Shown in pieces: positions 390-57,107 of a DNA stretch of 64,000 nt. The position numbers and the translations under genes are program-made. Under the pieces are notes generated by a model. That model worked only from the letters and a program-made list of their open reading frames with translations. It was not told the DNA's origin and did no database searches. The DNA is from an uncultured Bacilli bacterium. Lineage in GTDB: Bacteria; Bacillota_I; Bacilli_A; RFN20; CAG-826. The number at the start of each line of letters is the position of its first letter. Within the stretch, counting starts at the first letter, position 1. The stretch covers positions 206,408-270,407 of the forward strand of contig CALVUI010000002.1 of assembly GCA_944363565.1 (NCBI GenBank), in the 5' to 3' direction.

Positions 390-869
390 TTACTTGTGAT
401 AGGGTTCGTGCCTGAGGATCCTAAAGGACCGGTATAGCTGTTCCAAGAGAATGACCCGGCTCATCTGATGGGTGAAGGTCAACCTAGACAAAGAAATAGA
501 AACATTGGCCCTCTTTTTTACTTCCTCGCTGAGGCCAAGCGACCCACCAATCAGGAAGTAAAGACGGCTCGAAGAAGCGACCATCCATTTTTCTATAAGG
601 GAGGCTAGGCCAGGGGAATCCGGTTCTTCCTTCCCAAGGTCGAGGGCGACAGCGAAATCGGTGGGTTTGAGCAAAGAGAGAAGCCGGGCCCCTTCCTTGT
701 TCTTGACCTCTTCTTCCTCGGCTTTCGAGAGGTCATTCGAGGCCATTTCTTCCTTTACTTCCTTGATGATGATTTCGGCGTAACTTCCTAGTCTTTTTAT
801 ATATTCCGCCGCCATTTTGCGGAGATAATCCTCTTTCAAGGATCCGACGCAGAGGATGGTGATCTTCAT
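390..869 (-). CDS. rlmH: 23S rRNA (pseudouridine1915-N3)-methyltransferase RlmH (SPOUT family)
   Basis: 159 aa; MKITILCVG N-terminus and SPOUT-knot C-terminus characteristic of RlmH/YbeA. Confidence 0.85.
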   Translation of the reverse strand: MKITILCVGSLKEDYLRKMAAEYIKRLGSYAEIIIKEVKEEMASNDLSKAEEEEVKNKEGARLLSLLKPTDFAVALDLGKEEPDSPGLASLIEKWMVASSSRLYFLIGGSLGLSEEVKKRANVSISLSRLTFTHQMSRVILLEQLYRSFRILRHEPYHK

Positions 870-3105: not shown

Positions 3106-3566
3106 TACTTTTCCTCGGAGATATGGACGTTGACGATGCCGTCGACTTCGCCCTGGCTTCCCTTGTAGAGTTCGATCTTCAGACGGGTATAGCCAAGGGC
3201 GTTGGCCGGATACTTGTCGATGAACTTCCGCTTGTCGATCTTGATCCCCCATTGCTTGAGCATCTCTTCTTCGATCTGCTTGGGAGAGATGGAACCGAAC
3301 ATCCGCCCGTCGCTTCCGACCTTGGCCGTGAATTCGACGTTGATGGATTTGAGCCTCTCGGCCACTTCTTCGGCTTCCTTATAAAGGACCTTCTGCCGTT
3401 CTTCTTCGATGGCGTTGCTCCGGGCTAGTTCCTTTTGGCTTCCTTCGGTCGAACGGAGGGCGAGCTTCCGGGGAATGAGGTAGTTGGTCGCATAGCCATC
3501 GCTGACGGAAATGGTGTCGCCCTTCTTTCCGAGCTTCTTGACGTCTTCTAACAAAATGACCTTCAT
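3105..3566 (-). CDS. rplI: 50S ribosomal protein L9
   Basis: MKVILLEDVKKLGKKGDTISVSDGYATNYLIPRKLA is a canonical L9 N-terminus; 153 aa. Confidence 0.95.
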   Translation of the reverse strand: MKVILLEDVKKLGKKGDTISVSDGYATNYLIPRKLALRSTEGSQKELARSNAIEEERQKVLYKEAEEVAERLKSINVEFTAKVGSDGRMFGSISPKQIEEEMLKQWGIKIDKRKFIDKYPANALGYTRLKIELYKGSQGEVDGIVNVHISEEK

Positions 3567-5593
3567 TGTTTGTCTCCTTCCTTGGTAATGTCGATGCGGG
3601 CCGAATCGAGGTATTCCTCGAGGGTCTCGAGCAAGGTTTTCTCGGCCTGCTCGACGGTTTGGCCGTTGAACGAGGCGGCCGCCGAGGTGAAATGGCCCCC
3701 GCCGCCCATTTTCTCACAAAGCAGTTGGACGTTGACCGAGCCATCGCTCCGCGCCGATATTCTAACCATTTTTTCATCGGTCTTGCCGATGACGAAGCAG
3801 GCATTGATGCCCTTGAGTTGCATCAATTGGTTGGCAACCTTGGCCAGGGTCGAACGCTCAACCAAATACTTCCCATCGGTCTTGCAGTAGACGATCCCAT
3901 AGTAGGGGGTCGTCATGGTGGAAATGATCTTGGTGATGAGGGTATATTCCTCGAACTCGTCCTTCAGATAGTAATCGGCGACCGCGTTGTCGGCCCCGAA
4001 GGACTTGAGGATCTCCGCCGCTTCGAAGGAGCGGGAACCAGTCGACTGGTTCTTGAAGAAATTGGTATCGAGGAAGATGCCCGAGAGCATGATGGTGGCG
4101 TAGGCCGGCTTGATCTCGATGGCCGGGTTGGCGGTCGCGTAATGGATCATCTCGGCGATCATTTCCGAGGCTGAGGAAGCCGAGGGGTCGACGTAGTTCA
4201 AGACCGGCTTGCTGACATATTCCTCGCCCCGGCGGTGGTGGTCGATGATGACGACCTTGCCGGCTTTTTCCAGCAAAGCGGGACACATGGTGAGGGAGGG
4301 GCGGGAAACGTCCACCACGAAGACCAGGGTCGAATCCTTGATCGAAGACAAGGCTTCGGACGGAGAGATGACCAGGGAATCGTAGACATCCTTGGGGAAG
4401 GCTTCCTGGAAGGCAATCCGGGCCTTCTTTTCCGCCTGCTTGGGGGAATAGACGATCTTGCAGGCCTTGCTGCAGTATTCGCAGAGGGCCTTGATGCCGA
4501 GACAACTGCCGAGGGCATCCATGTCCATTTCGTCATGGCCCATGACCATGACCGAGGAAGCCGAACGGATGAGGGCTAAGGTCGAGTCGGCGACCGAGCG
4601 GACCTTGACCTTGTTGGTGGCCTCGAAGGCCGCCGTCTTGCCGCCGTAGAAGCGGAGGTCGGAGCCGTACTTGGATACGACGGCCTGGTCACCGCCGCGA
4701 CTGAGGGCGATGTCGATGGCGTTGGAAACCATTTCGTTGAGGCGGATGGCATCCGGGAAGTCATGGGCAAAGCCGATGGACAAAGTAAGGGGAGCGGAGG
4801 GCCCGCTTTGGCAGGAACGGACCTTCTCGAGGACGGCAAAGCCATCGAGCTGCATCTTCTCAAGAGAGGTCCAGTTGCAGACCGCGAAGTAGGTATCGGC
4901 GCTCACCCTTCTAAGCAAGGCGCCCTTCTCCCGGAAGTAATCGCCGATCTCGCTTCTGACCTTGGCCAAGGTATCGTTGGTGTCTTCTTCCTCACCGGCC
5001 CTTTCGGCGTAGTTGTCGATCATGACGACCCCAAGGGCCAAGGCCTGGCCCCGGGAATAGGAAAGGAGGTTTTCGTATTCGGTGACGTCATGGAAGATGA
5101 AGAGGTGCGACTCAGCCACGTACTTGACCGAATAGGTCCGGCCCTTGAGTCCTACTTCGATGGTCTTGCTGGCCGGCCCGTCCATCAATTTCAGCAAGGC
5201 CGGGTCGACTGAAGAAAGGGGCTGGTCAATAAAATCGATCTGCCGTTCCTTGAAGAGGGAGTTGGTCCACATGACCGATTTCTCGTCATCGATGACGATG
5301 AGGCCGATCTTGGCAAAGGAATAGGCTTCCTGGATGTCGCTTCCGACCAAGGTCGCGGTTTCCAAATCGGACTTGTTCCTGACCCGGCTCAAGGAGGCGA
5401 CCGAAAGCCAGTAGAGGAGGAAGTTAAGGAGCAAGAGGACAAGGGCCATCACCACGACGTAGGAAACGGGGATGACCTCGGAAATGGAGGCGAAGTCAAA
5501 ATAGTAGGCCACCAGGGTCAAGGCCAGCAAAATGAATTCGATTCCCGCGATCAGCGTCGCGTAGATCCGGATGCGGCGGATGGCTTTCCTCAT
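3563..5593 (-). CDS. gdpP: c-di-AMP phosphodiesterase GdpP (2 TM helices, degenerate GGDEF, DHH and DHHA1 domains)
   Basis: N-terminal TM pair; DHH motif IIDHHRRG; DHHA1 GGGGH motif; conserved yybT-rplI-dnaC gene order. Confidence 0.85.
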   Translation of the reverse strand: MRKAIRRIRIYATLIAGIEFILLALTLVAYYFDFASISEVIPVSYVVVMALVLLLLNFLLYWLSVASLSRVRNKSDLETATLVGSDIQEAYSFAKIGLIVIDDEKSVMWTNSLFKERQIDFIDQPLSSVDPALLKLMDGPASKTIEVGLKGRTYSVKYVAESHLFIFHDVTEYENLLSYSRGQALALGVVMIDNYAERAGEEEDTNDTLAKVRSEIGDYFREKGALLRRVSADTYFAVCNWTSLEKMQLDGFAVLEKVRSCQSGPSAPLTLSIGFAHDFPDAIRLNEMVSNAIDIALSRGGDQAVVSKYGSDLRFYGGKTAAFEATNKVKVRSVADSTLALIRSASSVMVMGHDEMDMDALGSCLGIKALCEYCSKACKIVYSPKQAEKKARIAFQEAFPKDVYDSLVISPSEALSSIKDSTLVFVVDVSRPSLTMCPALLEKAGKVVIIDHHRRGEEYVSKPVLNYVDPSASSASEMIAEMIHYATANPAIEIKPAYATIMLSGIFLDTNFFKNQSTGSRSFEAAEILKSFGADNAVADYYLKDEFEEYTLITKIISTMTTPYYGIVYCKTDGKYLVERSTLAKVANQLMQLKGINACFVIGKTDEKMVRISARSDGSVNVQLLCEKMGGGGHFTSAAASFNGQTVEQAEKTLLETLEEYLDSARIDITKEGDKQ

Positions 5594-5629
5594 AGGTGCC
5601 TATTATAAACCCTAATCCCAAGGGATTAG
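5594..5629 (-). promoter_or_regulatory. putative gdpP promoter: TATAAT 8 nt before the ATG (possibly leaderless) next to a perfect 8-2-8 palindrome CTAATCCCAAGGGATTAG (5612-5629)
   Basis: Minus-strand reading ...CTAATCCCTTGGGATTAGGGTT TATAAT aggcacct ATG; no Shine-Dalgarno between the -10 and the ATG. Confidence 0.4.
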
Positions 5630-5839
5630 ATAGGGCTTGCACCCAAAAGGAATTCCTAGAAAGGCCGGTATCCAATCAAACCGAAAACCGATATATCGAA
5701 AACCCCGCAAAAGTGAATCATTTGGAATGTTATCCCCATTTTAGGACTCCTTGGGTTATAAAAAGGACAAATAAGGTTTTCATGGGTCTTAATGATGCCA
5801 TTACCCCCGAAATCAGAGCCTTTTCCACCCTTTAAGCAA

Positions 5840-5869
5840 CAAAAAAAGACCTGCCTTAACGGACGGGTC
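5840..5869 (-). terminator. rho-independent terminator downstream of the vat remnant
   Basis: Minus-strand imperfect GC hairpin GACCCGTCCGTTAAGGCAGGTC followed by TTTTTTT. Confidence 0.5.
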
Positions 5870-5885
5870 CTTCGACTCGTTTTTG

Positions 5886-6003
5886 CCTAATGTCGCCATA
5901 CGACACCATCCGTCTCCGAAACTACGATCTTCTCCCTTCTGGTGCGATCATGCCGCGTTTCCCTCCTTCCGCGAACGACTTTTTCAAAATATCCCTTGCC
6001 CAT
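5886..6003. repeat. composite island repeat, copy A (unit 2 only), fused to the vat remnant
   Basis: About 85-90% identity to 8609-8740 and 10783-10920 (TAATGTCGCC..CCATCCGTC.CCGAAACTACGATCTTCTCCCTTCTGGTGCGATCATGCCGCGTTTCC...). Confidence 0.85.
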
Positions 6004-6291
6004 TATGTTGAATGGGTAGGTAGAGATTCCGTTAAAGCGGTGATTGGCGCCGTTCATGATGAACCTAACGCCCTTGGCGATTGCGCAGAACTTCCCGATG
6101 ATCAGTTTGTCCCCGATGAATGGGTAATGGTGGCTTACGTGGCTTTCGAAATCCACACCGCCGGTTTCGCTATCGTCATAATAGGTGTAGTCGCCAATGA
6201 CGATATTGGGGTTTTTGACGACGTTTTTTATAAAGCAGACGCTTGGGACCTTTGGATTGGGATGGATGTCGTTCTTATTGGGGCCTTCCAT
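5887..6291 (-). pseudogene. vat: truncated streptogramin A / xenobiotic acetyltransferase (Vat family, hexapeptide-repeat) remnant: about 110 N-terminal codons, then repeat-derived sequence and a stop
   Basis: MEGPNKNDIHPNPKVPSVCFIKNVVKNPNIVIGDYTYYDD...HYPFIGDKLIIGKFCAIAKGVRFIMNGANHRFNGISTYPFN matches the Vat(D)/SatA N-terminal half; the C-terminal ~100 aa of LbH repeats are missing and the ORF ends inside repeat copy A. Confidence 0.7.
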
Positions 6292-6470
6292 AACGTGCCT
6301 CCTTTTTTAGCGACATTAAAGGCATGCCCTAAGGGATTTGGCAATAGAGGGATTATGGGCAATTCGCCCAAAAGGCGAGCGGATTAAACCAATAGGCGTT
6401 AAACTTGCCTTATGCGTCATTGTCCATAGGCGGCCATCACCACACAATGTAGCCACGAAAGGACATGTAT

Positions 6471-6706
6471 ATGACAAACATCCAACAAAGACTCCTCGAC
6501 CTAAGCTAAGGAAGGAAAAGGGGCTGACCCAGGAGGAGGTGGGCGCCAAGCTCGGCGTCTCCCCCAAAGCGTCTCAAAATGGGAAAACGGCCTCACCTAC
6601 CCCGACATCGACCTCCTCCCGGAGATCGGGGACTCTATCGAGGTAAGCTATTATGACGGCCTTCTTGGCGAGCCATATTACATATACGCAGGCTACGTCT
6701 TTTGAA
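6471..6706 (+). pseudogene. XRE-family (Cro/CI-type HTH) transcriptional regulator disrupted by two frameshifts
   Basis: Three frames together spell MTNIQQRLLDL / RKEKGLTQEEVGAKLGVSPKA / VSKWENGLTYPDIDLLPEIGDSIEVSYYDGLLGEPYY. Shifts lie at a CTAAG direct duplication (~6505) and near a C5 run (~6570). AAAGGA RBS 7 nt before the ATG at 6471. Confidence 0.55.
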
Positions 6707-7095
6707 TAGGATCCCACGGCCTTCTCGCAAAACGCCGTCAGGAGGCTCCTCCAGTAGCATCCGTTCCTAGGCGAGGCGCGCCCGTCTTCGCATTCCCCTG
6801 TGGAATCCAGGAGGACGCCCTCCACAGCCTCGCTGAAATCCTTCTCCATCCCGCATCTTAGCATCTCGCCAGCGGGAATGGGGCTTCCTCAAGGGAGCCC
6901 TTCGCGTCGTCTTTTGCCATGCGGCTTTCTCTTTCCTAGGCAAATGCAAGGATAGAAGTCTACTTCTTGGGAATCTAGCCCTTCCGCGGTAGCCCAGTGG
7001 ACGTTCGCGGACGGGTTTTTAGCTTACACAACATTTATCCGCGGTCCCGAAGATTAGGCCAACGCTTCCCCCGCGTGTGAATCCCTCTCCCAATG

Positions 7096-8340
7096 TCAAA
7101 TGGCTTCCTTCCCAAGGAATAAATCGATTGCATTTATGTGGCGAACCCCTTCTTGCTGATCTCTAAGCAGATCAAGGGAAATGATATATCGGGGATAGCC
7201 ATCTCTTATTTCCCTAAATGGCCTATATTCCCTTTCCTTGGTTTCCTCGTTTCCCGTCATCGTATATGCGACTTGGATATAGGCATAATCGCCATTTTGC
7301 TTTCTTACGATAAAATCGCATTCGAAATTGCCGATTTTCCCCACGCTTACTTGGTATCCGTTGCTAACCAAATAAAGATAAACAATGTTTTCCAATGAGT
7401 GGCCATAGTTCAATTTGTTATTGACGTTAGTTGAAAAATACAACGCCAAATCTGCTAGGTAATACTTTTGTTCTCTCAACAAGGACCTTTTGGATTTCAA
7501 ATCGAATCTATCGCATTCATATATGATTTTGGCTTTCTTTAAAACCTCAATGTAGTTCTTAATCGTTGCGATCTTTGCTTTAATGCCGGCTTTAGTTAAC
7601 GAATAGTGAAAGCTTTTTAGGGAAAAGGGCGAAGCGTAATTGTTGATGATGTATGACTGAACCCTCTCAAAAAGGGCTAGATTGGAAATCCTGTTTCTGG
7701 TTTTGACGTCTTTATTGAATATTTCGGCGATTATCTGGCTTGTATATAGTTGTTTGGCGCTAAAATCGTCAAACTCCAAAGCCTTTGGAAAACCGCCTTC
7801 CATGATATAGGAGTTAAATTCTTCGTAAACATTATTCTTGATTGTCTTGCTGAAGAATTTTTTCATTTCAAGATATTCGCGAAAATCCAATGGATATGTT
7901 TCGAAAGCAACATATCTTCCGGTCAATTTAGTCGAAATTTCATCGCTTAAAAGATATGAATTTGAACCGGTTAAAAAAACCGAGTAGCCTTCTTCTTCGT
8001 ATTGAAGCACCACTTTTTCAAAACCTCTGACATTTTGGACCTCATCGATAAATAGATAATATCTGCCTGAGTCATGAATCCGTTCTTCTATTTTGCTTTC
8101 CAGTTGCTTTGGGGTGACGATATTCTTGTATCCCCTTTTATCCAAGGGCAAATAAATGATTCTGTCAGACAGGTTCCTTGACTCCAATTCGCTGATAATG
8201 GATTTCAAAATCGATGTTTTGCCAGACCTTCTAATGCCCGTAATAACCTTTACGACATCGCTATCGTAAAATGGCCTGATTTTCGACAAGTACTTTTCCC
8301 TTGGATAAATCATATTCTCCATAAGTTTGTTTCCGTCCAA
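7096..8340 (-). CDS. AAA+ superfamily ATPase (AAA_14 + DUF4143, COG1373-type)
   Basis: GIRRSGKTSIL P-loop, LFIDEVQ Walker B; 414 aa; gene is markedly AT-rich relative to its flanks. Confidence 0.75.
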   Translation of the reverse strand: MDGNKLMENMIYPREKYLSKIRPFYDSDVVKVITGIRRSGKTSILKSIISELESRNLSDRIIYLPLDKRGYKNIVTPKQLESKIEERIHDSGRYYLFIDEVQNVRGFEKVVLQYEEEGYSVFLTGSNSYLLSDEISTKLTGRYVAFETYPLDFREYLEMKKFFSKTIKNNVYEEFNSYIMEGGFPKALEFDDFSAKQLYTSQIIAEIFNKDVKTRNRISNLALFERVQSYIINNYASPFSLKSFHYSLTKAGIKAKIATIKNYIEVLKKAKIIYECDRFDLKSKRSLLREQKYYLADLALYFSTNVNNKLNYGHSLENIVYLYLVSNGYQVSVGKIGNFECDFIVRKQNGDYAYIQVAYTMTGNEETKEREYRPFREIRDGYPRYIISLDLLRDQQEGVRHINAIDLFLGKEAI

Positions 8341-8530
8341 TGGTTTATATCATTAAATCGGGTTTAAGGGTAGTGTTTTTGAGAAAAGTTAAAAAAACAG
8401 TCCCCTTAAACGGCCATTTACTTGCAAAACGGAAGTCCTTGGCTTATTGGCTTTTTAGTGGAAATAAAATCTAACCCCCTATGGTTTGACGGAAATGGCC
8501 ATCAGGGTAATGCCCTGATCAAATAGTAGA

Positions 8531-8930
8531 AAAGGGCCTCGCCGAGGAGGCCCTTGGAGAACGGTTCTTGTTGTGATTTCCGGGGCAATCGAGCCCGGGA
8601 AACTACAATTAATGTCGCCGCACGGGCCCATCCGTCCCCGAAACTACGATCTTCTCCCTTCTGGTGCGATCATGCCGCGTTTCCCTCCTTCCGCGAACGG
8701 CTTTTCCAAAGGATCCCTTGCCCACGCCCAGGCAGCCTCGCATAAGGACAATGCAGGCGCCGTCTTGATTATCCGGCCTTGCCACGAAGCGATCCGGGCT
8801 TGCCTGGAAAGCGTTTCTGGCAGTCTAAGGAATTCGCCAAGGCATAAGTAAAAGGCCGCGCCGAGCAGGCCCATGGAGAACGGTTGCCGCATCTGGCCTA
8901 TCCGGGCTGCCACAGAGAAAACTAGACTGT
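8531..8930. repeat. composite island repeat, copy B (unit1-unit2-unit3-partial unit1/3)
   Basis: Unit 1 (8531-8606) ~90% identical to 10696-10790 and 11028-11100; unit 2 (8609-8740) to 5886-6003 and 10783-10920; unit 3 (8745-8855) to 10920-10990 and partly 10640-10700. Confidence 0.85.
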
Positions 8931-9079
8931 TTTAAAAGCGTAGCTGGCTAGCTAGATGCTTTACCTAAACGCAAGAAAAGTCCTCTTGGAGAGAGCCCTT
9001 TAAAAACGGTTTTTCTGTCGCTTCGGGCGGATCGAACTGCCTGACCGTATAGCCCGCCGGCTTTAAAAAGAGCGAATGG

Positions 9080-10408
9080 TCAGAGTATTTCCCAATACCC
9101 GCTTTTACGTGACCCGATGCGTTTCAGAATTTTGCCATCGCGTAGGGACTTAAGATGACGGTAAACGGTTATTTCGGCTTTGCCAGTTGCCTTGGCCAAA
9201 TCATCAATCCGGCTAAATTTGTTCTTGCGCAAGGCATCAAGTATCGCCTCGTCGACGTCGTCTTTCGCATTATCGATTCCATCATTCAAGAATCGCTTGT
9301 TCCTTATGAAGAGAAAAGTGAAGCCGAACTCATCGTTTCGGTACTCGTAGCCAATGCTATTGCGGTCGCAAAGAGTAAATGTTCTCTCGAAGCCGGTTCC
9401 GAAAGCATCGATATACCCGCATTTGTAAAGCACAGACGCAATGAGCACGTTCCGTATTTTGCTGCCTACCTCCGCGGTGGCGAATTTCATTGGGTCGATG
9501 TTTTTGTAAATCGATCCCGGGTTATAAATCCGTATCGATGACTTGAATATCGTTATTTGGTTGAAATCCCCTTTGACCCCGTACTTGCTATGCACAAAGC
9601 TGTTCACCACGATTTCGCGAATGGCTTCAATCGGTATTTCGGGCGTTTCGACCCTTTGAATTCCTTGAATTTCCGATTTGTAGCTTATGTGGTTCTGAAT
9701 ATAGGAAACCGCTTCGCGGATGCACTCAAAGATGTTTCCCTTGAACTGTTTGATTTCGCCGAATTCGGTGCGGCTGTCGGTTGGATACGAGGCTTCTTTG
9801 ACCATTACCGGCTTCCCTTTACCGAAAAGATAGTATCCAGCGGTTTTTATCCTCCCGTCCTTATCTACAAGGTCTAATTTTGTCATCGCTTCCTTGAGAC
9901 CTTTGTATACGTAATTGAGGCGTCCTTTTTCATTTGCCGTCCTTATGACGTCCAGAACGAGGTCCTCGTCGATATCCTCATAACCGCAATCGGCCGGCTT
10001 TTCCTCCCACCCCGAATACGTATCGTCCTTGGCTTCGAAGTATTTCTGAAGCTGATTATTCGTCATCGGGATGTCACCGTCGTCGAGCCGACAGAAATAG
10101 CGGCCATAAGCGGAATAGGGAGTGTCTTCTCCTTCCGCATAAACGCGGATTACTTTGCTTCCGTCAACTTCGACCACATTGATATCGAGCGTAGTTGGCA
10201 TCGGCTTCAGGCTTGTCCGTATTTCGTTCGAAAGATCAGGTAGCGTCTTAGGGCCAATGGTGAGCGGATGGGGCTTTTTGTCGGGACCAATGCCGAAAAA
10301 GACTTCTCCGCGATGGCTTTTGTTCAGCATAGCGCTTAGCGAAATGACACCTTCCCTTTCTTGGCTGAGAGACTTTTTATATTCAGTGACGACATCCTCG
10401 TTTTTCAT
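9080..10408 (-). CDS. Schlafen/AlbA_2-domain + HATPase_c_4 + C-terminal wHTH protein (COG2865-type putative DNA-binding regulator)
   Basis: 442 aa; N-terminal divergent AAA/AlbA_2 region, central ATPase-like region, C-terminal winged-helix (ITVYRHLKSLRDGKILKRIG); lower GC than flanks. Confidence 0.65.
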   Translation of the reverse strand: MKNEDVVTEYKKSLSQEREGVISLSAMLNKSHRGEVFFGIGPDKKPHPLTIGPKTLPDLSNEIRTSLKPMPTTLDINVVEVDGSKVIRVYAEGEDTPYSAYGRYFCRLDDGDIPMTNNQLQKYFEAKDDTYSGWEEKPADCGYEDIDEDLVLDVIRTANEKGRLNYVYKGLKEAMTKLDLVDKDGRIKTAGYYLFGKGKPVMVKEASYPTDSRTEFGEIKQFKGNIFECIREAVSYIQNHISYKSEIQGIQRVETPEIPIEAIREIVVNSFVHSKYGVKGDFNQITIFKSSIRIYNPGSIYKNIDPMKFATAEVGSKIRNVLIASVLYKCGYIDAFGTGFERTFTLCDRNSIGYEYRNDEFGFTFLFIRNKRFLNDGIDNAKDDVDEAILDALRKNKFSRIDDLAKATGKAEITVYRHLKSLRDGKILKRIGSRKSGYWEIL

Positions 10409-10635
10409 GTCTTTCGCTCCTTTGAACTAACTGCTGCTTTATCTTATCATTTATCTTATCATTGATGAAATAAAATGATGATATAAAAACCGGGCAGCAG
10501 TCTGCTTATCTTGGCGATTGGTAAACAATCACGGGCTTTGTTATTCGTCTTGATCATAAAACCCATCTACTTATCGACCCCGTAGGCAACCGGTCGAGGG
10601 GAACACTCAGGTCAAACTAATCTATTCTAGGCTCG

Positions 10636-11103
10636 CCATGAAGCCGTGCGGGCCCGTCTGGGAAGCGTTTCTGGCAGGCCAAGCAATTCGCCAAGGCATA
10701 AGAAAAAGGCCTCACCGAGGAGGCCCGTGGAGAACGGTTCTTGTTGTGATTTCCGGGGCAATCGAGCCCGGGAAACTACATTAACTGTCGCCATACGACG
10801 CCATCCGTCCCCGAAACTACGATCTTCTCCCTTCTGGTGCGATCATGCCGCGTTTCCATAAATCCGCGAACGGCTTTTCCAAAGGATCCCTTGCCCATGC
10901 CCAGGCAACCGGGCGACGGGAAAACGCAGGCGCCGTCTGGCTTATCCGGGCTAGCCACGAAGCGATCCGGGCTTGCCTGGGAAGCTTTGTCGGTTGATTA
11001 GTCTATTTATCTATAGGCATAGAAAAAGACCTCCCGGAGGAGGCCCTTGGAGAACGGTTCTTGTTGTGATTTCCGGGAAAATCGAGCCCGGGAAACTACA
11101 TTT
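10636..11103. repeat. composite island repeat, copy C (partial unit3-unit1-unit2-unit3-spacer-unit1), abutting the rpsR stop
   Basis: See copy B; the last unit 1 (11028-11100) is the native rpsR terminator region. Confidence 0.85.
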
Positions 11104-11110
11104 ACGCCGC

Positions 11111-11335
11111 TTATTGTCCGGCGTAGGGAAGAAGGCCCATGAAGCGGGCATTCTTGATGGCCCGGGCCAATTGGCGCTGATACTTGGCGCAAGTACCGGT
11201 CGCGCTCCTCGGGGCGATCTTGCCTTCCGGGGTGATGAAGCGCTGAAGCAACTCGACATCCTTGTAGTCGATGTGCTTGATGTGGTTCTTGGTAAAGTAG
11301 CAGACCTTCTTCCGGGGTCTCATTTTCTTGTACAT
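11111..11335 (-). CDS. rpsR: 30S ribosomal protein S18
   Basis: 74 aa, [17 protein letters not shown]...[27 protein letters not shown]. Confidence 0.95.
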
Positions 11336-11354
11336 TTCTGTCTCTCCTTACTGG

Positions 11355-11810
11355 TCAATCAAAAGGGAATGGGATGTCGTCCTCGAGGACGTCGAAGTCG
11401 TCGCTTTGGGCCGCGTTGTTATTGTTGGAAGCGGGGGCCACGTCGGGGGTAAAGCCGACGTTGGTCGCTCCGGCGGAAGCCGAGGCGTTCTTCGGGTCGA
11501 GGAATTCGACACTGTTGGCAACGATTTCGGTCGAAGTGACTTCGACGTTGTCTTTGTTGCGGACGTATTTGCGCTGGACCAGACGTCCATCGACGGCCAC
11601 CAAGGAGCCCTTGTGGGTGAACTTGGCGACGGTATCGGCCCGATTGCCGAAGACGGTAACCGGCATGAAGATGGTTGATTTCTCCCCGTTGGCGTTCTTG
11701 TAGCTATCGTCAACGGCCACCGTGAAGGAAACGATGGAGGTTCCGCTGGCCGAACGGGCCAACCGGGGATCGCGGGTGAGTCTACCGATCAGGACGACGT
11801 GGTTAAGCAT
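11355..11810 (-). CDS. ssb: single-stranded DNA-binding protein
   Basis: OB-fold N-terminus MLNHVVLIGRLTRDP, Gly/Asn-rich linker, acidic DDIPF C-terminal tip. Confidence 0.9.
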   Translation of the reverse strand: MLNHVVLIGRLTRDPRLARSASGTSIVSFTVAVDDSYKNANGEKSTIFMPVTVFGNRADTVAKFTHKGSLVAVDGRLVQRKYVRNKDNVEVTSTEIVANSVEFLDPKNASASAGATNVGFTPDVAPASNNNNAAQSDDFDVLEDDIPFPFD

Positions 11811-11830: not shown

Positions 11831-12115
11831 TTAGTCCTCATCGACTGTGATGAGATGGCGGAGAACATTCTGATCAAGCCCGGCGACGCGTTGGAACTCG
11901 GCGAGGGGTTTCTCGGCGTTCACCTTGAGGATGACGTAATAGCCCTTGGCCTGTTCCTTGATGGGATAGGCGAAGTCCCTTACGCCCCATTCCTTGGTGT
12001 CGGTCACCTTGCCCTTTTCGGACTCGATGATCTTTTGGAGCTTGGCGATTTCATCCTTGCGGGCCGCCTCTTCGAGGTCGGCGCGGAGGATGTACATGAT
12101 CTCGTACTTCTTCAT
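11831..12115 (-). CDS. rpsF: 30S ribosomal protein S6
   Basis: MKKYEIMYILRADLEE N-terminus; GGAGGTG RBS 7 nt upstream of the internal ATG, so start placed at 12115 rather than the TTG at 12130. Confidence 0.9.
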   Translation of the reverse strand: MKKYEIMYILRADLEEAARKDEIAKLQKIIESEKGKVTDTKEWGVRDFAYPIKEQAKGYYVILKVNAEKPLAEFQRVAGLDQNVLRHLITVDED

Positions 12116-12280
12116 TATCAGCACCTCCAATTCGGTTGCTAGACCAGGTCGATTGCCTGGCCATAGAAGTGTGGATGCCTTAATTCCTTCCTTTAAGGCC
12201 GAATAATGATATTATCCCGGGCCAAGAAAGGCAATGAAGAAATGCCATCGCGGGGCCAGTCGCCACCCCGCACCCCAAGA

Positions 12281-27700: not shown

Positions 27701-29608
27701 CTAGGCAATCTTGAATCCGGTGTAGGTAGTCGGTTCCCCTTGGCAATAAAGGCCTAGATGGGTCGGGGCAGTGCTGATACCGCTCACGGTCCTCGAGCCG
27801 ATCTTGCTGTAGGCTCCCGCCCTCAAGGTAGCCTCGAATGTGGCCGAATCTCCGGCCATCGTGACCTTCACTTCGAGATCGAAGCCATCGGCCGGATGGA
27901 CGGCGCTTCCGTCGGCCCAGATATCGTGCCAGCCGAGGTCGGCGCCGCCGATGGTCCCGGTGATTTGGATGCAACGGATCTCGTGGGGCCGATCGGAGTC
28001 CGCGTATTGGGCGTAGACGATGACGAAGTCATTGGGTCCGGCGTAATAGGCGAGGTAGCCGAACATCAATTCCTTGGTGGCGTTCCCGGTCGTGGTCCCT
28101 TTGATGTGGCCACTTAGGGTATAGGAATTACCGACTTCCACGGGCTTACCGACGAAACCGGCCTTCCAGTTGGAGTTCTCGACGACAATGGAATCCCCGC
28201 TTTCCTCGAAGGTCGTGGGATTTCCGCCCGGGGCCAGAACCTGCCAGTCGGTCTTGATTTCTTCCTTTTCGAAGACGATGTTGCTGAAGGTCGCAACATC
28301 GCCGTTGCTATAGACGCCGGCATAGGCCGAGGGGCCGAAGCTACCGGTCATCGAGGTCGAACCGACCTTGACGGTCGACCCGGCAGTGACGTTGGCGGTC
28401 GCGGTGACACCGCTATTGGTGATTTGGACGCTGACGGAGAGACTGAGGCCATCGGCCGGGGCGACATGACAGCCATCCATCCAGATGGGACTGGGATAAG
28501 TGACCGCTCCGTTGACGGAGACGGCCGGTTGGATGGAGGTCAGGTCGCTAGGACGACCGGCACCGTTGGCCTTCCATTCGGCATAGTAGGCGATCCAGTT
28601 CTCGGCATCCTGGTAATAGGCGACGATCCCCACGGCGACGTCGTGGTCGATCGGGAGGGCGTCAATCGTCCCCTTGATGTCGGCCTTGACGGTATAGGCG
28701 TTGCCTAGCTCATTCGCGGGCTTGACCACGAAGTTCTTGAGGTGGTCGTTGTTGCTGATCTTGACGGAGTCACTAGAGGGTTGCCCATAGGCAAACTCGG
28801 CCCCGGCATTGACGACCTCGAAGCCCTTTTCGAAACCATCATAGGCGATTTCATCCCCTAGGGTCTTGGTAGCCTTGCTGCCGCTAAGGTAATCCATGTG
28901 GAAGGGGGTGCTTTCCACGTCCTTGATCGAGAGGACGAAGGCCCCATAGGGATCGACCTTGGTCATCTTCCCTTCATAGGTGAGGATGTCGTCGGCGTTG
29001 GCCTTAAGGACGACCGAAGAATCGCCTTGGGTCAGGCGGACTTCTTCGTCGGCCTTCAGATAACCCGGCAGCTTGATCGAGACATCGAGGTCAACATAGA
29101 CCGGATTGGGGTCGCAGCTATAGGTGATGACCAAACTACTGATCGTCGTCTCCTCGAAGGCCTCCAAGTTGAAGTAACTCGGGGAGCCGATGACCTCGGT
29201 CGGGACTTCGTTGACCGGAAGCTTGACGGGGACAAGGGCCCCGGCCTCACTCCCGAAGGAGAGGGCCAAACTTCCCTCATAGGAAATGGTGATCCCCTTG
29301 ATCCCGGTGATGGGATCGCTGTTGGAAAGGCTCCCGCCCCGATTGAGGAGGGCGTGTCCGGCCTCCGGCTTTTCCCCGAGGCCTTCATAGACGAACTTGA
29401 CCTTCCCTTGCTTGGTGTTGCTGAGCAAGACCTGTTCCTTGGTCCCGGCTTCCGGGGCGTTGTCGGCACTGAGGGTGAAGGTATAGCCCTCGTCGGCTCC
29501 CGCCACGACGGGGTCATTCCCATAGGCCGAAGCGCAGGCGATCGCGGCCACCATCCCGGTCGCTAGTAAGCCCACGCCCATGATTTTGGCAAAACTACTC
29601 TTTTTCAT
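27701..29608 (-). CDS. secreted lipoprotein with repeated beta-sandwich-like (carbohydrate-binding?) domains
   Basis: Start at MKKSSFAKIMGVGLLATGMVAAIACASAYG (lipobox AIAC), AAAGGAGA RBS; shares W/YY-x-D-x-N-[YWF] repeat-domain signatures with the 954-aa neighbour. Confidence 0.7.
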   Translation of the reverse strand: MKKSSFAKIMGVGLLATGMVAAIACASAYGNDPVVAGADEGYTFTLSADNAPEAGTKEQVLLSNTKQGKVKFVYEGLGEKPEAGHALLNRGGSLSNSDPITGIKGITISYEGSLALSFGSEAGALVPVKLPVNEVPTEVIGSPSYFNLEAFEETTISSLVITYSCDPNPVYVDLDVSIKLPGYLKADEEVRLTQGDSSVVLKANADDILTYEGKMTKVDPYGAFVLSIKDVESTPFHMDYLSGSKATKTLGDEIAYDGFEKGFEVVNAGAEFAYGQPSSDSVKISNNDHLKNFVVKPANELGNAYTVKADIKGTIDALPIDHDVAVGIVAYYQDAENWIAYYAEWKANGAGRPSDLTSIQPAVSVNGAVTYPSPIWMDGCHVAPADGLSLSVSVQITNSGVTATANVTAGSTVKVGSTSMTGSFGPSAYAGVYSNGDVATFSNIVFEKEEIKTDWQVLAPGGNPTTFEESGDSIVVENSNWKAGFVGKPVEVGNSYTLSGHIKGTTTGNATKELMFGYLAYYAGPNDFVIVYAQYADSDRPHEIRCIQITGTIGGADLGWHDIWADGSAVHPADGFDLEVKVTMAGDSATFEATLRAGAYSKIGSRTVSGISTAPTHLGLYCQGEPTTYTGFKIA

Positions 29609-29756
29609 GGTTCTCCTTTTTGTAAGCGCTTCCAACGCCTTCCGCCCCAAAGACTGACGACGGGGGAACGTTTTCTGACGCAAGTCCATTCTAAGGGGGC
29701 CATATAAGGGCCTTAATGCCACAAGCCTAGGCTCTTATACAATTTGGCACCATGAA

Positions 29757-29797
29757 TGAAAAACGCCGCCCGGCTTGGCCGGGTCGGCGCTTTTTGG
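29757..29797. terminator. strong GC hairpin / terminator between the two large surface-protein genes
   Basis: AAAAAC-GCCGCCCGGC-TTGG-CCGGGTCGGCGC-TTTTT. Confidence 0.75.
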
Positions 29798-29812
29798 TGT
29801 TTAGGCTATTAG

Positions 29813-32677
29813 TTACTTGGCCTTTTTGTTGCGTTGACGCATATAGAGGTAGACGCCAAGACCAACGAGGAGAAGGACGCCGATCCCCCCGAAGACGAGG
29901 CCGAGGATGAGGCCGAGGTTTTCGTTTTCGGGTTCGGTCGGAGTGACGTCGGTACCGCCAGTCGAGGTGCTGCTTTCGCCCTCTCCGGTCGCCGGCTTTT
30001 CGGCAACCGTGATGTCGTATTCGATCGGGTCGGCTTCGTTGCCCCAGTCATCGATGCAGGTAACGCTGACATGGTAGGCCCCGAGCTTTTCGGCCGTGAA
30101 GGCATTGGAGACCAGGGTCACGGGATTATCAGTCGGATCGGTGACGTTGACGATGGCGTTCAAAGGATCGTAGTTGCTATTGGAGGCGGTGTAGATCGGA
30201 AGACGGACACTATCCCCTAAGTAGGCCTCGGTGACCCGGGTCCCGACTTCGGCGATGACCGGCTTTTCGTTATAGGAGTAGACCCGTTCGTCGACCCCGA
30301 GGGCGAAGTCCTTGAAGGTCGCGGAGACGTTGGAGATGTTGAAGCCGCTCTTGGCTCCGCTTAGCCGTCTAGCCGATAGACCCGGGTATTCGCCCTGGTA
30401 GACCGGGGCGAAGGTCCCGCCGACATAGACGGAGATGGTATCGCCTTCGATATGGGCTTCGAGCTTGTTGTCGGCCCCTTCGAACTGGATCCCGACTTCC
30501 CTCTCGCCCCATTCGGGCGGGATGATCTGGCCATTGATGCGGACCGTGGTGTTGACGTTGGTGGTCGAACCGGCCCAACGGCTGAACCAGACGAAGACGT
30601 AGTTGTTGCTGTCGACGTAGTAGGGGACAAGACCGACCTTGTGCTCGCTGGCGGTCACTTCGGAAACATTGACCGTGGCCCCGCACCAGAAGTCGGTCTT
30701 TTCGTTGCTGATGAGGGCATTGGTCTGCTGCCAGACGGTCCCGCCATCGAGCTTCCCGGTGACGGTCCCGTTTTCCTCATCGATGGTCCAGGTATCGGGA
30801 CGGGGGCCGTTCAGGCTCCAATCCCCTTCCTGGACGGTGCTGTTGGGAAGGAAGCCGGTATAGGTAAGGCTATTGAGGCTCCCGCCCTGGCCTTCAAAGA
30901 AGAAGCCGGTGGCTAGAGCTTCGGAGAAGTCGAAGTCGTTGAGGACGAAGCCTTCGACGACAGAGGTTCCGTCAAGGCTGACATTGAGGACGCCCCTCTT
31001 CAGTTCGGTGGAAAGTTCATGGGGAGCCAAGGCATCGAACCCTTCGGGGAGGGCATTGGTGGTCGGGGTTTCCACTCCGTTCACGCAGACATAGACGGTG
31101 ATGGCGGACTTGCCCAAAGCGACCCTGACGTAATTGTCGACATCTACCAAGAAGGCATAGAGACCGTATTCCTGGCCATCCTGCAGAGCCGCGAAGGTGG
31201 CGCTGACCGAGATATTGCCGACATAGCGAGTAGAGAAATAAAGTCCGGCCACTCCTTCCTGGTCGCCGCTTTTGACGGCCAGATCATCGACGGTGTAGGT
31301 CCCGCCTTCATAGGAGAAGACGCTATCGTCGTCGGTGGCCGACTTGACATTGACAAGCTGGCCACCGACCGAGGCCACCCGCCAGTCGAAGGCCTGGTAT
31401 TGGATGGAGGCGGTTTCGTAGGTGAAGGTGACGTTCATGCCGCTGACGGCCGTCCCGATCATGTTAGAAGAGGCAAAGGTGGCATTGGAAGCAGTCAAGA
31501 CCGTGGCCCGGTCGTTTTCGAGATAGACCGAGATGGTGTTGCCCTTCTTTTGGGCAATGATGGTGATATTGCCATCTTGGTCGGCTTTTTGCGCCGATTC
31601 ACCAAGTTCCAGGGATTCATAGATCGGGGTTTGGTTCATGGTGCCCCCGGCCCCGTAGACGGTGACGAGGCCTTCGATGTAGAGGGTCCTCTTACCGCCC
31701 AGATCAAGGATATAGGCGACTGCGTAGTTGGTTTCGTCGTTGTACCAGGCGACCAGGCCGATCGCCGACTTGTCGACCAAGGCGGTTTCCGGGAAGGTGG
31801 CCTTCAGCTCATAGTTCCCCTCATAGGGGTTCTTGCCAAGGGCCATGGTCGAGGCCACGCCACTCGCGGTGGTTTCGTCAATCGCGTAGGTCTTGTCGTT
31901 GATGGTCCAATTCCCGGAAGCGGATTTGGCGACGATCCCCGGAGTGACTTCGTGGTAGAGGTCGGTCCTCGCATTTTCGGCCACTTCAAAGGAAGTGATC
32001 TCGAGGTTCTCGTTGTAGGTATAGATCCCGACCTTCGAGGGTTTGGTCGAATACTTGGGAAGATCGCGGAAGCCATAGAAACCGACCTTGTTGCCGTTGA
32101 TGTAGGCGCTGAATTCGTCGGTATCCCCGGCCGCGCTCCTTTCCTTCTTGACCTCGAAGGTCCAGGAGGAGTCGGGGGAGACGGCAAAGCCCTCGTTGGC
32201 CCCGTCCATCCAGGCGTCGTTCCACTCGGCTTCGACGAAGCCCCCGTCCTTGTAGACGACCGGGGCCTTGCCGTCGATCCGGCCGGTGAACTCGACGACC
32301 CGCATCCCGCTCGGCCTTTCGGTCGGGCTCCATTCCATGTAGACCACCAGGTAGTTGTTGGCGTCCAAATACCAAGGGACAAGGCCGATCTGGATGTTCT
32401 TGGTCACGGGCCAGGCCGTTTCGCCCTTGCCCTCGATCTTGACGCTGTAGTCGCCTAAATAACTATCGGCTTCATAAAGGAGGAAGTTGTCGCGCATCCC
32501 GGTTTGGGAAGCGGAGGCAAGGATCGAATCCTCGCTTATCGTGTAATAACTCGAGACGTCTCCGCCGGTAGAAAGCGACCAGTCGGCGGCCTTGAAGGCC
32601 GCTCTCGGGGCGGCATTAGCCCCCGAGACGCCGGTCAAGGAAGCGAGGGCCAAGACGGGGATCAACAATCCGTTCAT
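29813..32677 (-). CDS. large cell-surface protein: signal peptide, 4 or more copies of a ~110-aa repeat domain, C-terminal TM anchor with basic tail
   Basis: MNGLLIPVLALASLTGVSGANA signal; repeats containing GLVPWYLDANNYLVVY / GLVAWYNDETNYAVAY / GLYAFLVDVDNYVRVA / GLVPYYVDSNNYVFVW; C-terminal hydrophobic segment LGLILGLVFGGIGVLLLVGLGVYLYM then RQRNKKAK. Confidence 0.75.
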   Translation of the reverse strand: MNGLLIPVLALASLTGVSGANAAPRAAFKAADWSLSTGGDVSSYYTISEDSILASASQTGMRDNFLLYEADSYLGDYSVKIEGKGETAWPVTKNIQIGLVPWYLDANNYLVVYMEWSPTERPSGMRVVEFTGRIDGKAPVVYKDGGFVEAEWNDAWMDGANEGFAVSPDSSWTFEVKKERSAAGDTDEFSAYINGNKVGFYGFRDLPKYSTKPSKVGIYTYNENLEITSFEVAENARTDLYHEVTPGIVAKSASGNWTINDKTYAIDETTASGVASTMALGKNPYEGNYELKATFPETALVDKSAIGLVAWYNDETNYAVAYILDLGGKRTLYIEGLVTVYGAGGTMNQTPIYESLELGESAQKADQDGNITIIAQKKGNTISVYLENDRATVLTASNATFASSNMIGTAVSGMNVTFTYETASIQYQAFDWRVASVGGQLVNVKSATDDDSVFSYEGGTYTVDDLAVKSGDQEGVAGLYFSTRYVGNISVSATFAALQDGQEYGLYAFLVDVDNYVRVALGKSAITVYVCVNGVETPTTNALPEGFDALAPHELSTELKRGVLNVSLDGTSVVEGFVLNDFDFSEALATGFFFEGQGGSLNSLTYTGFLPNSTVQEGDWSLNGPRPDTWTIDEENGTVTGKLDGGTVWQQTNALISNEKTDFWCGATVNVSEVTASEHKVGLVPYYVDSNNYVFVWFSRWAGSTTNVNTTVRINGQIIPPEWGEREVGIQFEGADNKLEAHIEGDTISVYVGGTFAPVYQGEYPGLSARRLSGAKSGFNISNVSATFKDFALGVDERVYSYNEKPVIAEVGTRVTEAYLGDSVRLPIYTASNSNYDPLNAIVNVTDPTDNPVTLVSNAFTAEKLGAYHVSVTCIDDWGNEADPIEYDITVAEKPATGEGESSTSTGGTDVTPTEPENENLGLILGLVFGGIGVLLLVGLGVYLYMRQRNKKAK

Positions 32678-32695
32678 AGATATCTCCTTTCCGAA

Positions 32696-56808: not shown

Positions 56809-57046
56809 TTTTCCACAGGCGTGTTGATAAGTTTTCCACATTTTGGTGGACAAACCCGCAACGGACTAGTTGGAAACAGGGCAAAAAATCCTCGAAACAT
56901 TGTGGAGAAAGCGCTTATATTTTGAGTTTTCCACCAAATCGTAAAGGGCTAAAAAGTTATCCACAAGTTATCCACAATGAGCAAGTTGTGGAAAAGTCGA
57001 TTTCCTAGGCCCCGTGGGCACTATCGGGAATCGGCGTTGTGGATAA
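56809..57046. promoter_or_regulatory. oriC part 1: DnaA-box cluster upstream of dnaA
   Basis: Perfect TTATCCACA at 56957-56965 and 56968-56976, perfect TGTGGATAA at 57038-57046, 1-mismatch boxes at 56809, 56832, 56901, 56927, 56987. Confidence 0.85.
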
Positions 57047-57107
57047 ATCAATTTTTACGTTTAAACTCCTCCTACGGAGGTGGAAAAGTGGTATCTTTTG
57101 TCCGCTT

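Follow-up and report, generated by a model that had tools for sequence, protein, structure and literature searches.

What allows one and the same chromosomal interval to hold different genes in closely related strains is the question raised by a 64-kb stretch of DNA (the window) from an uncultured gut member of the Bacilli. Between rpsR (ribosomal protein S18) and gdpP (c-di-AMP phosphodiesterase) it carries 5.5 kb (window 5594-11110, the island under study), which hold two intact cargo genes, encoding proteins of 442 and 414 amino acids (aa), remnants of an XRE-family helix-turn-helix gene and of a streptogramin A acetyltransferase gene (vat), and copies of a composite repeat. An earlier sequence-only reading of this DNA had proposed an insertion hotspot that has been hit several times. 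Our comparison with related loci shows that the interval is a real accessory island whose content varies among strains, and that it occupies a hotspot specific to this lineage, immediately 3' of rpsR. Its composite repeat is a previously undescribed, non-coding module of 314 nucleotides (nt) with fixed ends, 5'-TGTAGTTTCC...GCGGCGAC-3' (i.e., TGTAG...GGCGAC(A)). In the direction of rpsR the module consists of the parts T (~85 nt), R (~120 nt), and M (~113 nt, the conserved 3' part), T being composed of a hairpin (TTTCCCGGG...CCCGGAAA) followed by a G+C-rich intrinsic-terminator hairpin with a T-run. Gene-gain hotspots accumulate strain-specific defence and resistance genes by an insertion mechanism that is mostly unknown; here the internal scaffold is resolved to the single base, as this fixed-ended module. 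It is common to hosts whose core nucleotides differ by one third and, in one instance, to hosts of 57% and ~40% G+C content (GC).

Different cargo at the same position in related loci

The DNA read comprises the window and 24 related loci (L001-L024) of ~20 kb or less each. These were reached by exact protein look-ups, one genome scan with GdpP (which yielded one relative), one metagenome scan (one contig), and a protein search with a spurious open reading frame (ORF) inside the repeat (eight clusters). The outgroup L014, a metagenome-assembled genome (MAG; GdpP 84% identical), is without the module, and its rpsR stop (3147) and gdpP ATG (3226) are separated by a 78-bp spacer made up of a terminator and a promoter-like TATAAT. 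From this outgroup, the adjacency of rpsR and gdpP is ancestral. The sequence-only reading had considered this adjacency normal in Bacillota; it holds for L014, although the general claim was tested on that MAG only.

Strains whose SSB protein is identical to that of the window nevertheless differ in gene content at this position, their cargo being either the 442-aa and 414-aa genes with the XRE and vat remnants, or GH172, GH3, and LRR genes, or LRR with a decayed DUF4143 gene only. The second arrangement occurs in L005, L006, L008, L010, and L018-L020, which read rpsR-T-R-M / GH172 / T-r / GH3 / T-R-M-terminator-LRR...gdpP, and the third in L009, where rpsR-T-R-M-terminator is followed by a gene for an LRR protein, the decayed DUF4143 gene, and gdpP. 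More distant hosts carry the module at the same spot: L017 (core ~66% identical to the window) reads rpsR-TRM-TRM-terminator, followed by an intact XRE gene and by the 414-aa gene at 95% identity, and L021 and L022 (core ~72% identical) read rpsR-TRM / GH172. In the human-gut contig L015, a 738-aa XRE-domain gene and a 241-aa gene stand between R-M and T-R. The cargo, differing among L005/L006/L008/L010, L009, L015, L017, and L021/L022, begins exactly past the end of M. Different cargo at the same spot in close relatives refutes a stable ancestral region, as the synteny check shows, and the proposal of several hits fits the observed mosaic of six repeat segments, two truncated genes, and cargo pieces that are 95-97% identical in genomes with a ~66% identical core.

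Only two other contexts of the module were found in public data. In L024 a 5'-truncated module lies between an acyltransferase gene and ppa. In L016, from a genome of ~40% GC, the tail of the 414-aa gene and the block downstream of it (97% identical) are accompanied by a methylase/HATPase_c_3/Z1/DUF4420 system, a truncated M, a terminator, and unrelated low-GC genes. The system in L016 (2281-8663; GCA_944376605.1, contig CALWDE010000007) is a five-gene block of 39% GC encoding MTaX1, a DNA methylase, HATPase_c_3, Z1, and DUF4420, and by these domains it looks like a restriction- or defence-type system. In L023, an IS3-family element (1167-2700, HTH_Tnp_2 and rve ORFs) is situated 53 nt into a T part. 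This element is the sole exception to the absence of recombinase or integrase domains among the called genes of the islands of L001-L024. Neither did Pfam reveal a recombinase domain in the five ORFs of the island itself, and no integrase was noticed elsewhere in the 64-kb window, as judged only by eye from the ORF map without full annotation.

That the interval would instead be a stable ancestral region, or a chimera caused by assembly across repeats, deserves next to no credence. Metagenome contigs often break in repeats and, because of the repeated module, assemblies of these genomes do break at this locus (L002, L003, and L011-L013 end there). However, the arrangement of the window is backed by two independent metagenome contigs from different samples, both 100% identical to it. 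L004 corresponds to window 12200-6737 and L001 to 8013-3000; since they also overlap each other by 1.3 kb and jointly cover all repeat copies, the arrangement is not an assembly artefact. Stability of the region is moreover at odds with the differing gene content of the identical-SSB strains and the adjacency of rpsR and gdpP in the outgroup.

Organization and composition of the island

The three copies of a composite repeat noted by the sequence-only reading are real (84-91% identical; BLAST E 1e-29 to 1e-111), and a profile search (nhmmer, with a profile from 14 module copies) resolves them into six segments, U1-U6, all within 5892-11100; the same profile located no further segment in the remainder of the 64 kb. 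From rpsR toward gdpP, the island contains the following features:

10787-11100, minus strand: U1, complete empty T-R-M of 314 nt (nhmmer positions 1-313, E 6e-102; repeat families D1-D3)
10583-10780, minus strand: U2, T and a diverged full R (nhmmer positions 1-198, E 9e-48; pairwise alignment)
9080-10408, minus strand: intact 442-aa cargo gene (Pfam SLFN_AlbA_2, HATPase_c_4, winged HTH)
8887-9035, minus strand: U3, degenerate T-R fragment (nhmmer positions 16-169, E 3.6e-11)
8614-8886, minus strand: U4, 5'-truncated, the last 39 nt of T followed by R and M (nhmmer positions 41-313, E 8e-89)
8521-8607, minus strand: U5, T only, with the 414-gene block next to it (nhmmer positions 1-88, E 2.5e-25; repeat family D3)
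7096-8340, minus strand: intact 414-aa cargo gene (Pfam AAA_14, DUF4143; PADLOC PDC-S01)
6621-7095, no strand: non-coding or decayed block that travels with the 414-aa gene (BLAST)
6503-6669, plus strand: truncated XRE-family helix-turn-helix remnant (tblastn with the intact 266-aa XRE protein of L017; partial Pfam HTH_3)
6004-6291, minus strand: vat remnant, N-terminal 96 codons (NCBIfam Vat_ABCDEFH)
5892-6003, minus strand: U6, M only, ending GGCGAC (5892) (nhmmer positions 202-313, E 3.6e-33; repeat family D2)
5841-5872, minus strand: probable native rpsR terminator (GGACCCGTCC...GGTC, then T7; sequence reading)
5594-5840, minus strand: region upstream of gdpP (hairpin 5611-5630, then TATAAT 7 nt before the ATG)

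The array starts 10 nt past the stop codon of rpsR and is lodged between that stop and the native rpsR terminator. Its units stand head to tail, with 6-nt AT-rich spacers: an empty unit (11100-10787) is followed by a T...M unit with the 442-aa gene (10780-8614) and by a T...M unit (8607-5892) that encloses the PDC-S01 gene plus the XRE and vat remnants. The first spacer, AGTTAA (10781-10786), separates U1 from U2, and the second, ATTAAT, follows the GGCGAC (8614) in which U4 ends, so that the layout reads rpsR / U1 / AGTTAA / T R-442-U3-U4 / ATTAAT / T-414-XRE'-vat'-M / native terminator / gdpP. The homology of U2 ends at the R/M boundary, which is the start of the 442-gene block; U3 lies directly downstream of the 442-aa gene and provides its terminator-like hairpin, and U5 and U6 bracket the 414/XRE/vat block. 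A motif, GTAGTTTCNNGGG, stands at the beginning of the unit and recurs 36 nt ahead of its end; in all, it is present twice in direct and once in inverted orientation. The R part (window 10920-10975 and 8750-8805) contains two copies of a 10-nt direct repeat, AAGCCCGGAT, ~21 nt apart from start to start. The R/M boundary consists of TGGGCATGGGCA, a 6-nt tandem, at which two independent junctions are located, i.e., the start of the 442-gene block and the transition from the vat remnant to M. Both the AAGCCCGGAT repeats and the TGGGCATGGGCA boundary may be protein-binding or slippage sites. A small protein encoded in the repeat was considered as well and rejected, since indels and, in L006/L009, the deletion of a single nt interrupt its frames.

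The insertion had been described as lower in GC, and this is the case (0.470 vs 0.568 in the remaining window), the profile of GC and of third-position GC (GC3) not being uniform. The drop is patchy: it is strongest in the 414-aa gene (GC 0.377, z -6.3 against 35 core genes; GC3 0.448, z -5.8), followed by the 442-aa gene (0.470, z -3.2 against the same genes) and the vat remnant (0.483), and the atypical GC of the two intact genes agrees with their earlier description as foreign-looking. The repeats are host-like in GC (0.55-0.58); this, and their being the scaffold of the hotspot rather than mere debris, goes beyond what the sequence-only reading had seen.

The family of the 442-aa protein is large (790 homologues at E<=1e-20), but the closest non-identical relative of the protein is only 70% identical. 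The 414-aa protein, 408 aa long with the start used by other gene callers, matches PADLOC PDC-S01 end to end (E 7.5e-131, residues 5-411 on profile positions 4-409 of 412), and its gene is, by this match, a candidate PDC-S01 phage-defence system. The cargo genes would presumably function, for instance in phage defence. At the DNA level, the 414-aa gene is 95-97% identical in L016 and L017, although their core genes have diverged much further. Window 7216-6621, which comprises the 3' end of this gene and the adjoining block, is 97% identical to L016 1-597, the match breaking off at 6621, inside the XRE remnant. In L017, an insertion of ~390 nt (11094-11481) upstream of the 414-aa gene relative to the window represents additional mosaicism within the shared cargo block.

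The two genes that had been described as decayed are so. The XRE remnant is split over two frames (6503-6604 and 6562-6669). The vat remnant covers only positions 1-97 of the 201 positions of the profile (E 2.3e-43) and, with 148 bits against a cut-off of 300 bits, does not qualify as a full-length Vat, which is a hexapeptide-repeat acetyltransferase of ~201-221 aa; it is cut where the module part M begins and, judged by its sequence, is a pseudogene. An apparent continuation of Vat into M (GKGYFEK) was treated as coincidence because the M copy of L007, which is not next to vat, has it too.

The native terminator (5841-5872) owes its probable role to the reading of its sequence and was not among the six sites of the terminator scan; in L009 and L017 the last module is followed by a homologous terminator, with the GAAGGACCC... 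motif in common. In the region 5' of gdpP, the window agrees with L009 over the final ~46 nt only. A hairpin followed by TATAAT and, 7-10 nt on, by the ATG precedes gdpP in the window (5601-5630, minus strand), L009 (8508-8545), and L014 (3190-3228), and this layout has been kept in three lineages despite differing hairpin sequences. This points to a gdpP mRNA with no leader or almost none, or else to the fusion of a terminator with a promoter.

The genes that flank the island are as follows:

11831-12130, minus strand: rpsF, upstream of rpsR
11355-11810, minus strand: ssb, upstream of rpsR
11111-11335, minus strand: rpsR (ribosomal protein S18), left flank (Pfam Ribosomal_S18, E 6e-27)
3563-5593, minus strand: gdpP (c-di-AMP phosphodiesterase), right flank (Pfam PAS_GdpP, GGDEF_GdpP, DHH, DHHA1)

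Downstream of gdpP follow rplI and dnaB. The island is situated on the replichore with leftward-running genes. A position just upstream of the replication origin had been claimed for it; "just upstream" here amounts to ~46 kb from dnaA (57039-58466), with which the group of dnaA, dnaN, and recF (assigned by eye) and gyrB (by Pfam domains) begins at 57039. The GyrB of the host is 79-81% identical to that of MAGs labelled "Bacilli bacterium" or "Candidatus Enteromonas sp." Staphylococci have the attachment site of the staphylococcal cassette chromosome (SCC) at the 3' end of rlmH; an rlmH-like SPOUT methyltransferase gene is present at window 390-869 (minus strand), 3 kb from the island, with no insertion at that gene. 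Farther away (window 27701-35062, minus strand), three consecutive large ORFs (673, 954, and 788 aa) have signal-peptide-like N-termini and probably encode surface proteins. In the relatives, LRR_5 and Flg_new proteins occur within the hotspot and close by.

Proposed recombination between modules and rival explanations

Turnover of the island by recombination between modules is, with a probability of about 0.5, the best-supported mechanism, because one loss event could be shown directly. The single module of L009 is identical to the rpsR-proximal copy of L006 through ...GGACGGATGG. Past this point a single diagnostic base is left, which, like the flank following the module, matches the distal copy of L019; the result is rpsR-TRM-X-LRR without the GH172/GH3 cargo. 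L009 is the product expected of a crossover between direct module copies in the last ~60 nt of M, the most conserved stretch. Among the three M copies of the window there are identical stretches of 47-62 nt, more than enough for RecA-type recombination, and a crossover between U1 and U6 would leave rpsR-TRM-terminator-gdpP. Furthermore, the modules are mosaics in which a few alternative haplotype blocks are combined differently in each copy, and their identity (81-89%) is irrespective of the divergence of the hosts (core identity 66-99%, measured over lysS-rpsR): core versus module identity amounts to 96% vs 81% for the window and L009, 66% vs 89% for the window and L017, and 99% vs 88% for L021 and L022. 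Modules and cargo are shared horizontally. The flanks show a corresponding pattern. The rps block of the window is 99.4% identical to that of L009 and gdpP only 81% (window 3563-5593 compared with L009 8545-9081), and L018 and L009 are 93.5% identical over the gdpP upstream region and the 5' end of gdpP with a 99% identical rpsF-ssb-rpsR block. These differences in gdpP allele suggest recombination breakpoints at the edge of the island and match the signature of hotspots without mobile elements, where recombination at flanking core genes is frequent (PMC5635113).

If turnover proceeds in this way, foreign gene blocks would arrive by horizontal transfer with module copies already attached, and would be stitched in, shuffled, and lost through recombination between module copies, the modules acting as portable homology; truncated genes and partial modules would be the scars of unequal and illegitimate events. 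We infer that the gain of cargo, too, proceeds by homologous recombination and not by a dedicated enzyme. Several observations weigh against recombination between modules as the full account. The crossover in L009 is placed by few variable sites and may have occurred at any point between the variable loop and the last base of M; it is one loss event only, and no gain intermediate was encountered among the loci read. Passive homology would not need module ends as sharp as these: T starts with TGTAG (TGTAGTTTCC) in ~10 upstream contexts, including the sequence-unrelated rpsR ends of three lineages and several cargo ends, and M ends with GGCGAC (GCGGCGAC) in ~10 downstream contexts. Two cargo blocks whose position is exactly that of the spacer between units have 5-nt duplications at their flanks (CTTAT in L015, GCTAA in L006/L018), which homologous recombination alone does not predict. 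The M copy and 414 block of L016 stand beside unrelated genes in a genome of ~40% GC, which makes recombination in core flanks implausible there. Finally, the copy number of the module is that of the 64-kb window and the ~20-kb loci and not a genome-wide figure.

The sharp ends and the duplications lead to the main rival reading, in which the T...M units are non-autonomous elements, either empty (314 nt) or with cargo, that owe their insertion to an enzyme whose gene lies in another part of the genome and are only reshuffled by homologous recombination; we hold this to be possible, though less likely than recombination between modules. A DDE transposase that acts on TG...CA ends and generates 5-bp duplications (Tn7-, Mu-, or Tn402-like) would qualify as the enzyme, as would a tyrosine or serine recombinase; it would always insert at one site immediately 3' of rpsR and in a single orientation, so that the elements pile up in tandem. 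With this agree the invariance of the ends, which start with TG and, if the nearly invariant A after GGCGAC is counted, end with CA, the AT-rich spacers of 5-6 nt between tandem units, the exact duplications at the two spacer-lying cargo blocks, the constant orientation relative to rpsR, and the start of T 13-16 nt past the conserved Gly-Gln codons of rpsR in three lineages with unrelated intervening sequence. Common ancestry could explain the termini, the spacers, the constant orientation, and the fixed start of T; the A of the CA end was added post hoc, the duplications flanking the units themselves are inconsistent, and several junctions fall inside modules (at the R/M boundary, mid-T, and mid-R). 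The two ends are weakly similar in inverted register (15-18 of 33 positions, shuffle p 0.0002-0.008), GTAGTTTCNNGGG recurs near both of them, but part of this similarity is due to the palindromic left end, and at default thresholds no terminal inverted repeat of the module was found. Tn7 inserts at glmS, between the stop codon and the terminator, and the position of the array can be likened to this; defence and resistance genes, the cargo classes found here, are also typical cargo of Tn7-like elements. A patchy distribution would likewise be expected of such an element: L014 is without the module though it is as close to the window as the module-bearing L017 and L021, module identity is uncoupled from host divergence, and one copy resides in the 40% GC host. 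On the other hand, apart from the IS3 element of L023, neither the island nor the 24 loci carry a transposase or integrase (the rest of the window having been eyeballed from its ORF map), and the 64 kb contain no module copy elsewhere. If this reading applied, T-R-M could be the two-ended core of an undescribed element family of uncultured gut Bacilli, whose members would stack head to tail and carry or capture defence and resistance genes, an attTn7- or integron-like gene-capture platform.

That the island was made by an integrase in the classical manner and lost this integrase afterwards (a relic like a cis-mobilizable element (CIME) or pseudo-SCC), or that it is an integron-like array, with the modules as oversized attachment sites, seems improbable to us. 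Direct repeats do bracket each cargo block, accretion is in tandem beside the 3' end of a conserved gene, the documented loss has its crossover where M is best conserved, and a T-type hairpin commonly follows cargo genes, as attC follows integron ORFs. But the repeats are ~300 nt long and 81-91% identical instead of identical cores of 15-60 bp (those at the borders of the island measure ~113-320 nt and are 84-91% identical, with exact 5-nt duplications flanking two cargo blocks in relatives), no intI, tyrosine, or serine recombinase gene or pseudogene occurs in any locus read, and empty tandem units with nothing between them exist in L017 and the window (U1-U2). Nor is the module an attC, a site that forms one imperfect palindrome of 57-141 nt and bears RYYYAAC/GTTRRRY border boxes: the 314-nt module has several separate hairpins, and its borders are GACAGTTAATG and GACATTAATTG, not GTTRRRY. 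T on its own was also rejected by eye as an attC, dif-like, or tRNA T-arm-like site, box sequences and loop sizes being unfit. Improbable, too, is that R-M is a small RNA gene or a cis-regulatory RNA in or near which islands insert as they do at tRNA and transfer-messenger RNA (tmRNA) genes, neither of which was found here. In favour of an RNA, an intrinsic terminator follows ~10-40 nt past M in every context, with five unrelated terminator sequences, copies reduced to M retain the 3' end without the 5' part, like displaced 3' halves of tRNAs, distant hosts resemble each other more closely in the module than in their core genes, and an invariant stem CGCG...CGCG surrounds a hypervariable loop. 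The terminators are, however, equally well or better explained by an array upstream of native terminators; the GAAGGACCC... terminator is homologous in the window, L009, and L017. Moreover, Rfam gave no relevant match (gathering thresholds over the 64 kb, E<=5 over the island), the folding energy is no better than that of shuffled sequences (z -0.33 on the rpsR strand, -1.45 on the other), no module has a promoter-like site, and alignment folds of 7 and 14 copies are essentially without covariation (with 14 sequences, 2 of 66 predicted pairs and a covariation term of -1.5 kcal/mol), so that a structured RNA was rejected. A phage or plasmid origin was also discarded: the M and T patterns were not found in viral contigs, and both the module and the 414 block were unmatched in plasmid and phage collections. 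L015 was considered as a circular molecule and rejected because its two end units carry different R alleles; its cargo block showed no terminal inverted repeats.

Each of the two leading explanations has its own consequence. If recombination between modules suffices to move cargo, the locus is a concrete example of "portable homology" and of island exchange in an uncultured gut lineage. If an enzyme acting in trans does so, the 3' end of rpsR would be a new target site and the module would provide presumably new element ends for searches. The module is in addition a handle for finding variable cargo in metagenomes, including candidate defence genes such as those for PDC-S01 and the Schlafen/AlbA_2 protein.

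Comparison with known systems

Our literature searches yielded nothing specific on a hotspot linked to rpsR. Chromosomal hotspots of horizontal gene transfer without recognizable mobile elements have been described by Oliveira, Touchon, Cury & Rocha (2017; PMC5635113). As in these hotspots, a single interval between core genes concentrates strain-specific genes that turn over quickly, without an integrase and with recombination in the flanking core genes. Those hotspots are, however, defined by their core flanks only, whereas here the cargo is framed by a repeated 314-nt, fixed-ended module of the hotspot's own.

Neisserial intergenic mosaic elements (NIME/dRS3) are intergenic mosaic repeat arrays, and the shuffling of mosaic repeats is a feature that the island shares with Neisseria. 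It also resembles the minimal mobile elements of that genus, alternative cassettes that are located between the same conserved genes and replace one another through homologous recombination (Saunders & Snyder 2002, cited in PMC1538595). In contrast to Neisseria, the host belongs to another phylum, no uptake sequences are known here, and the units are ~300 nt long with sharp ends, some of them enclosing cargo.

With Tn7-like islands, compared by their description and not by Tn7 models, the array seems to have in common an oriented insertion a few nt past the stop of an essential gene and before its terminator, TG...CA ends, 5-nt duplications, tandem pile-up, and defence and resistance cargo, the empty unit having the size of a minimal two-ended element. 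To our knowledge, rpsR has not been described as a Tn7-like target. Unlike Tn7, the DNA read contains no tnsA, tnsB, tnsC, tnsD, or tniQ, the inverted similarity of the ends is weak, and there is no clear array of transposase-binding sites, only GTAGTTTCNNGGG (two direct, one inverted) and AAGCCCGGAT (twice).

Mobile insertion cassettes (MICs), e.g., MIC231 of Bacillus cereus, combine the same ends with passenger genes and lack a transposase. Short non-coding units with fixed ends beside longer, transposase-free versions with passenger genes are what the island shares with these cassettes and with miniature inverted-repeat transposable elements. It differs from both in having neither convincing terminal inverted repeats nor a consistent target duplication, and in the lack of dispersal (six segments at one locus in 64 kb). 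CIMEs in streptococci and pseudo-SCC at rlmH in staphylococci are integrase-less relics in tandem, and like them the island consists of recombinase-less blocks, bracketed by direct repeats, that have accreted at the 3' end of a conserved gene near the origin. Here, though, the repeats are ~300 nt long and diverged instead of short identical att cores, some stand in tandem with nothing between them, and no cognate integrase is known. As a hotspot, therefore, the locus 3' of rpsR is of a familiar kind; what is unusual is the fixed-ended 314-nt module, which frames and partly encloses the cargo and is exchanged among different hosts.

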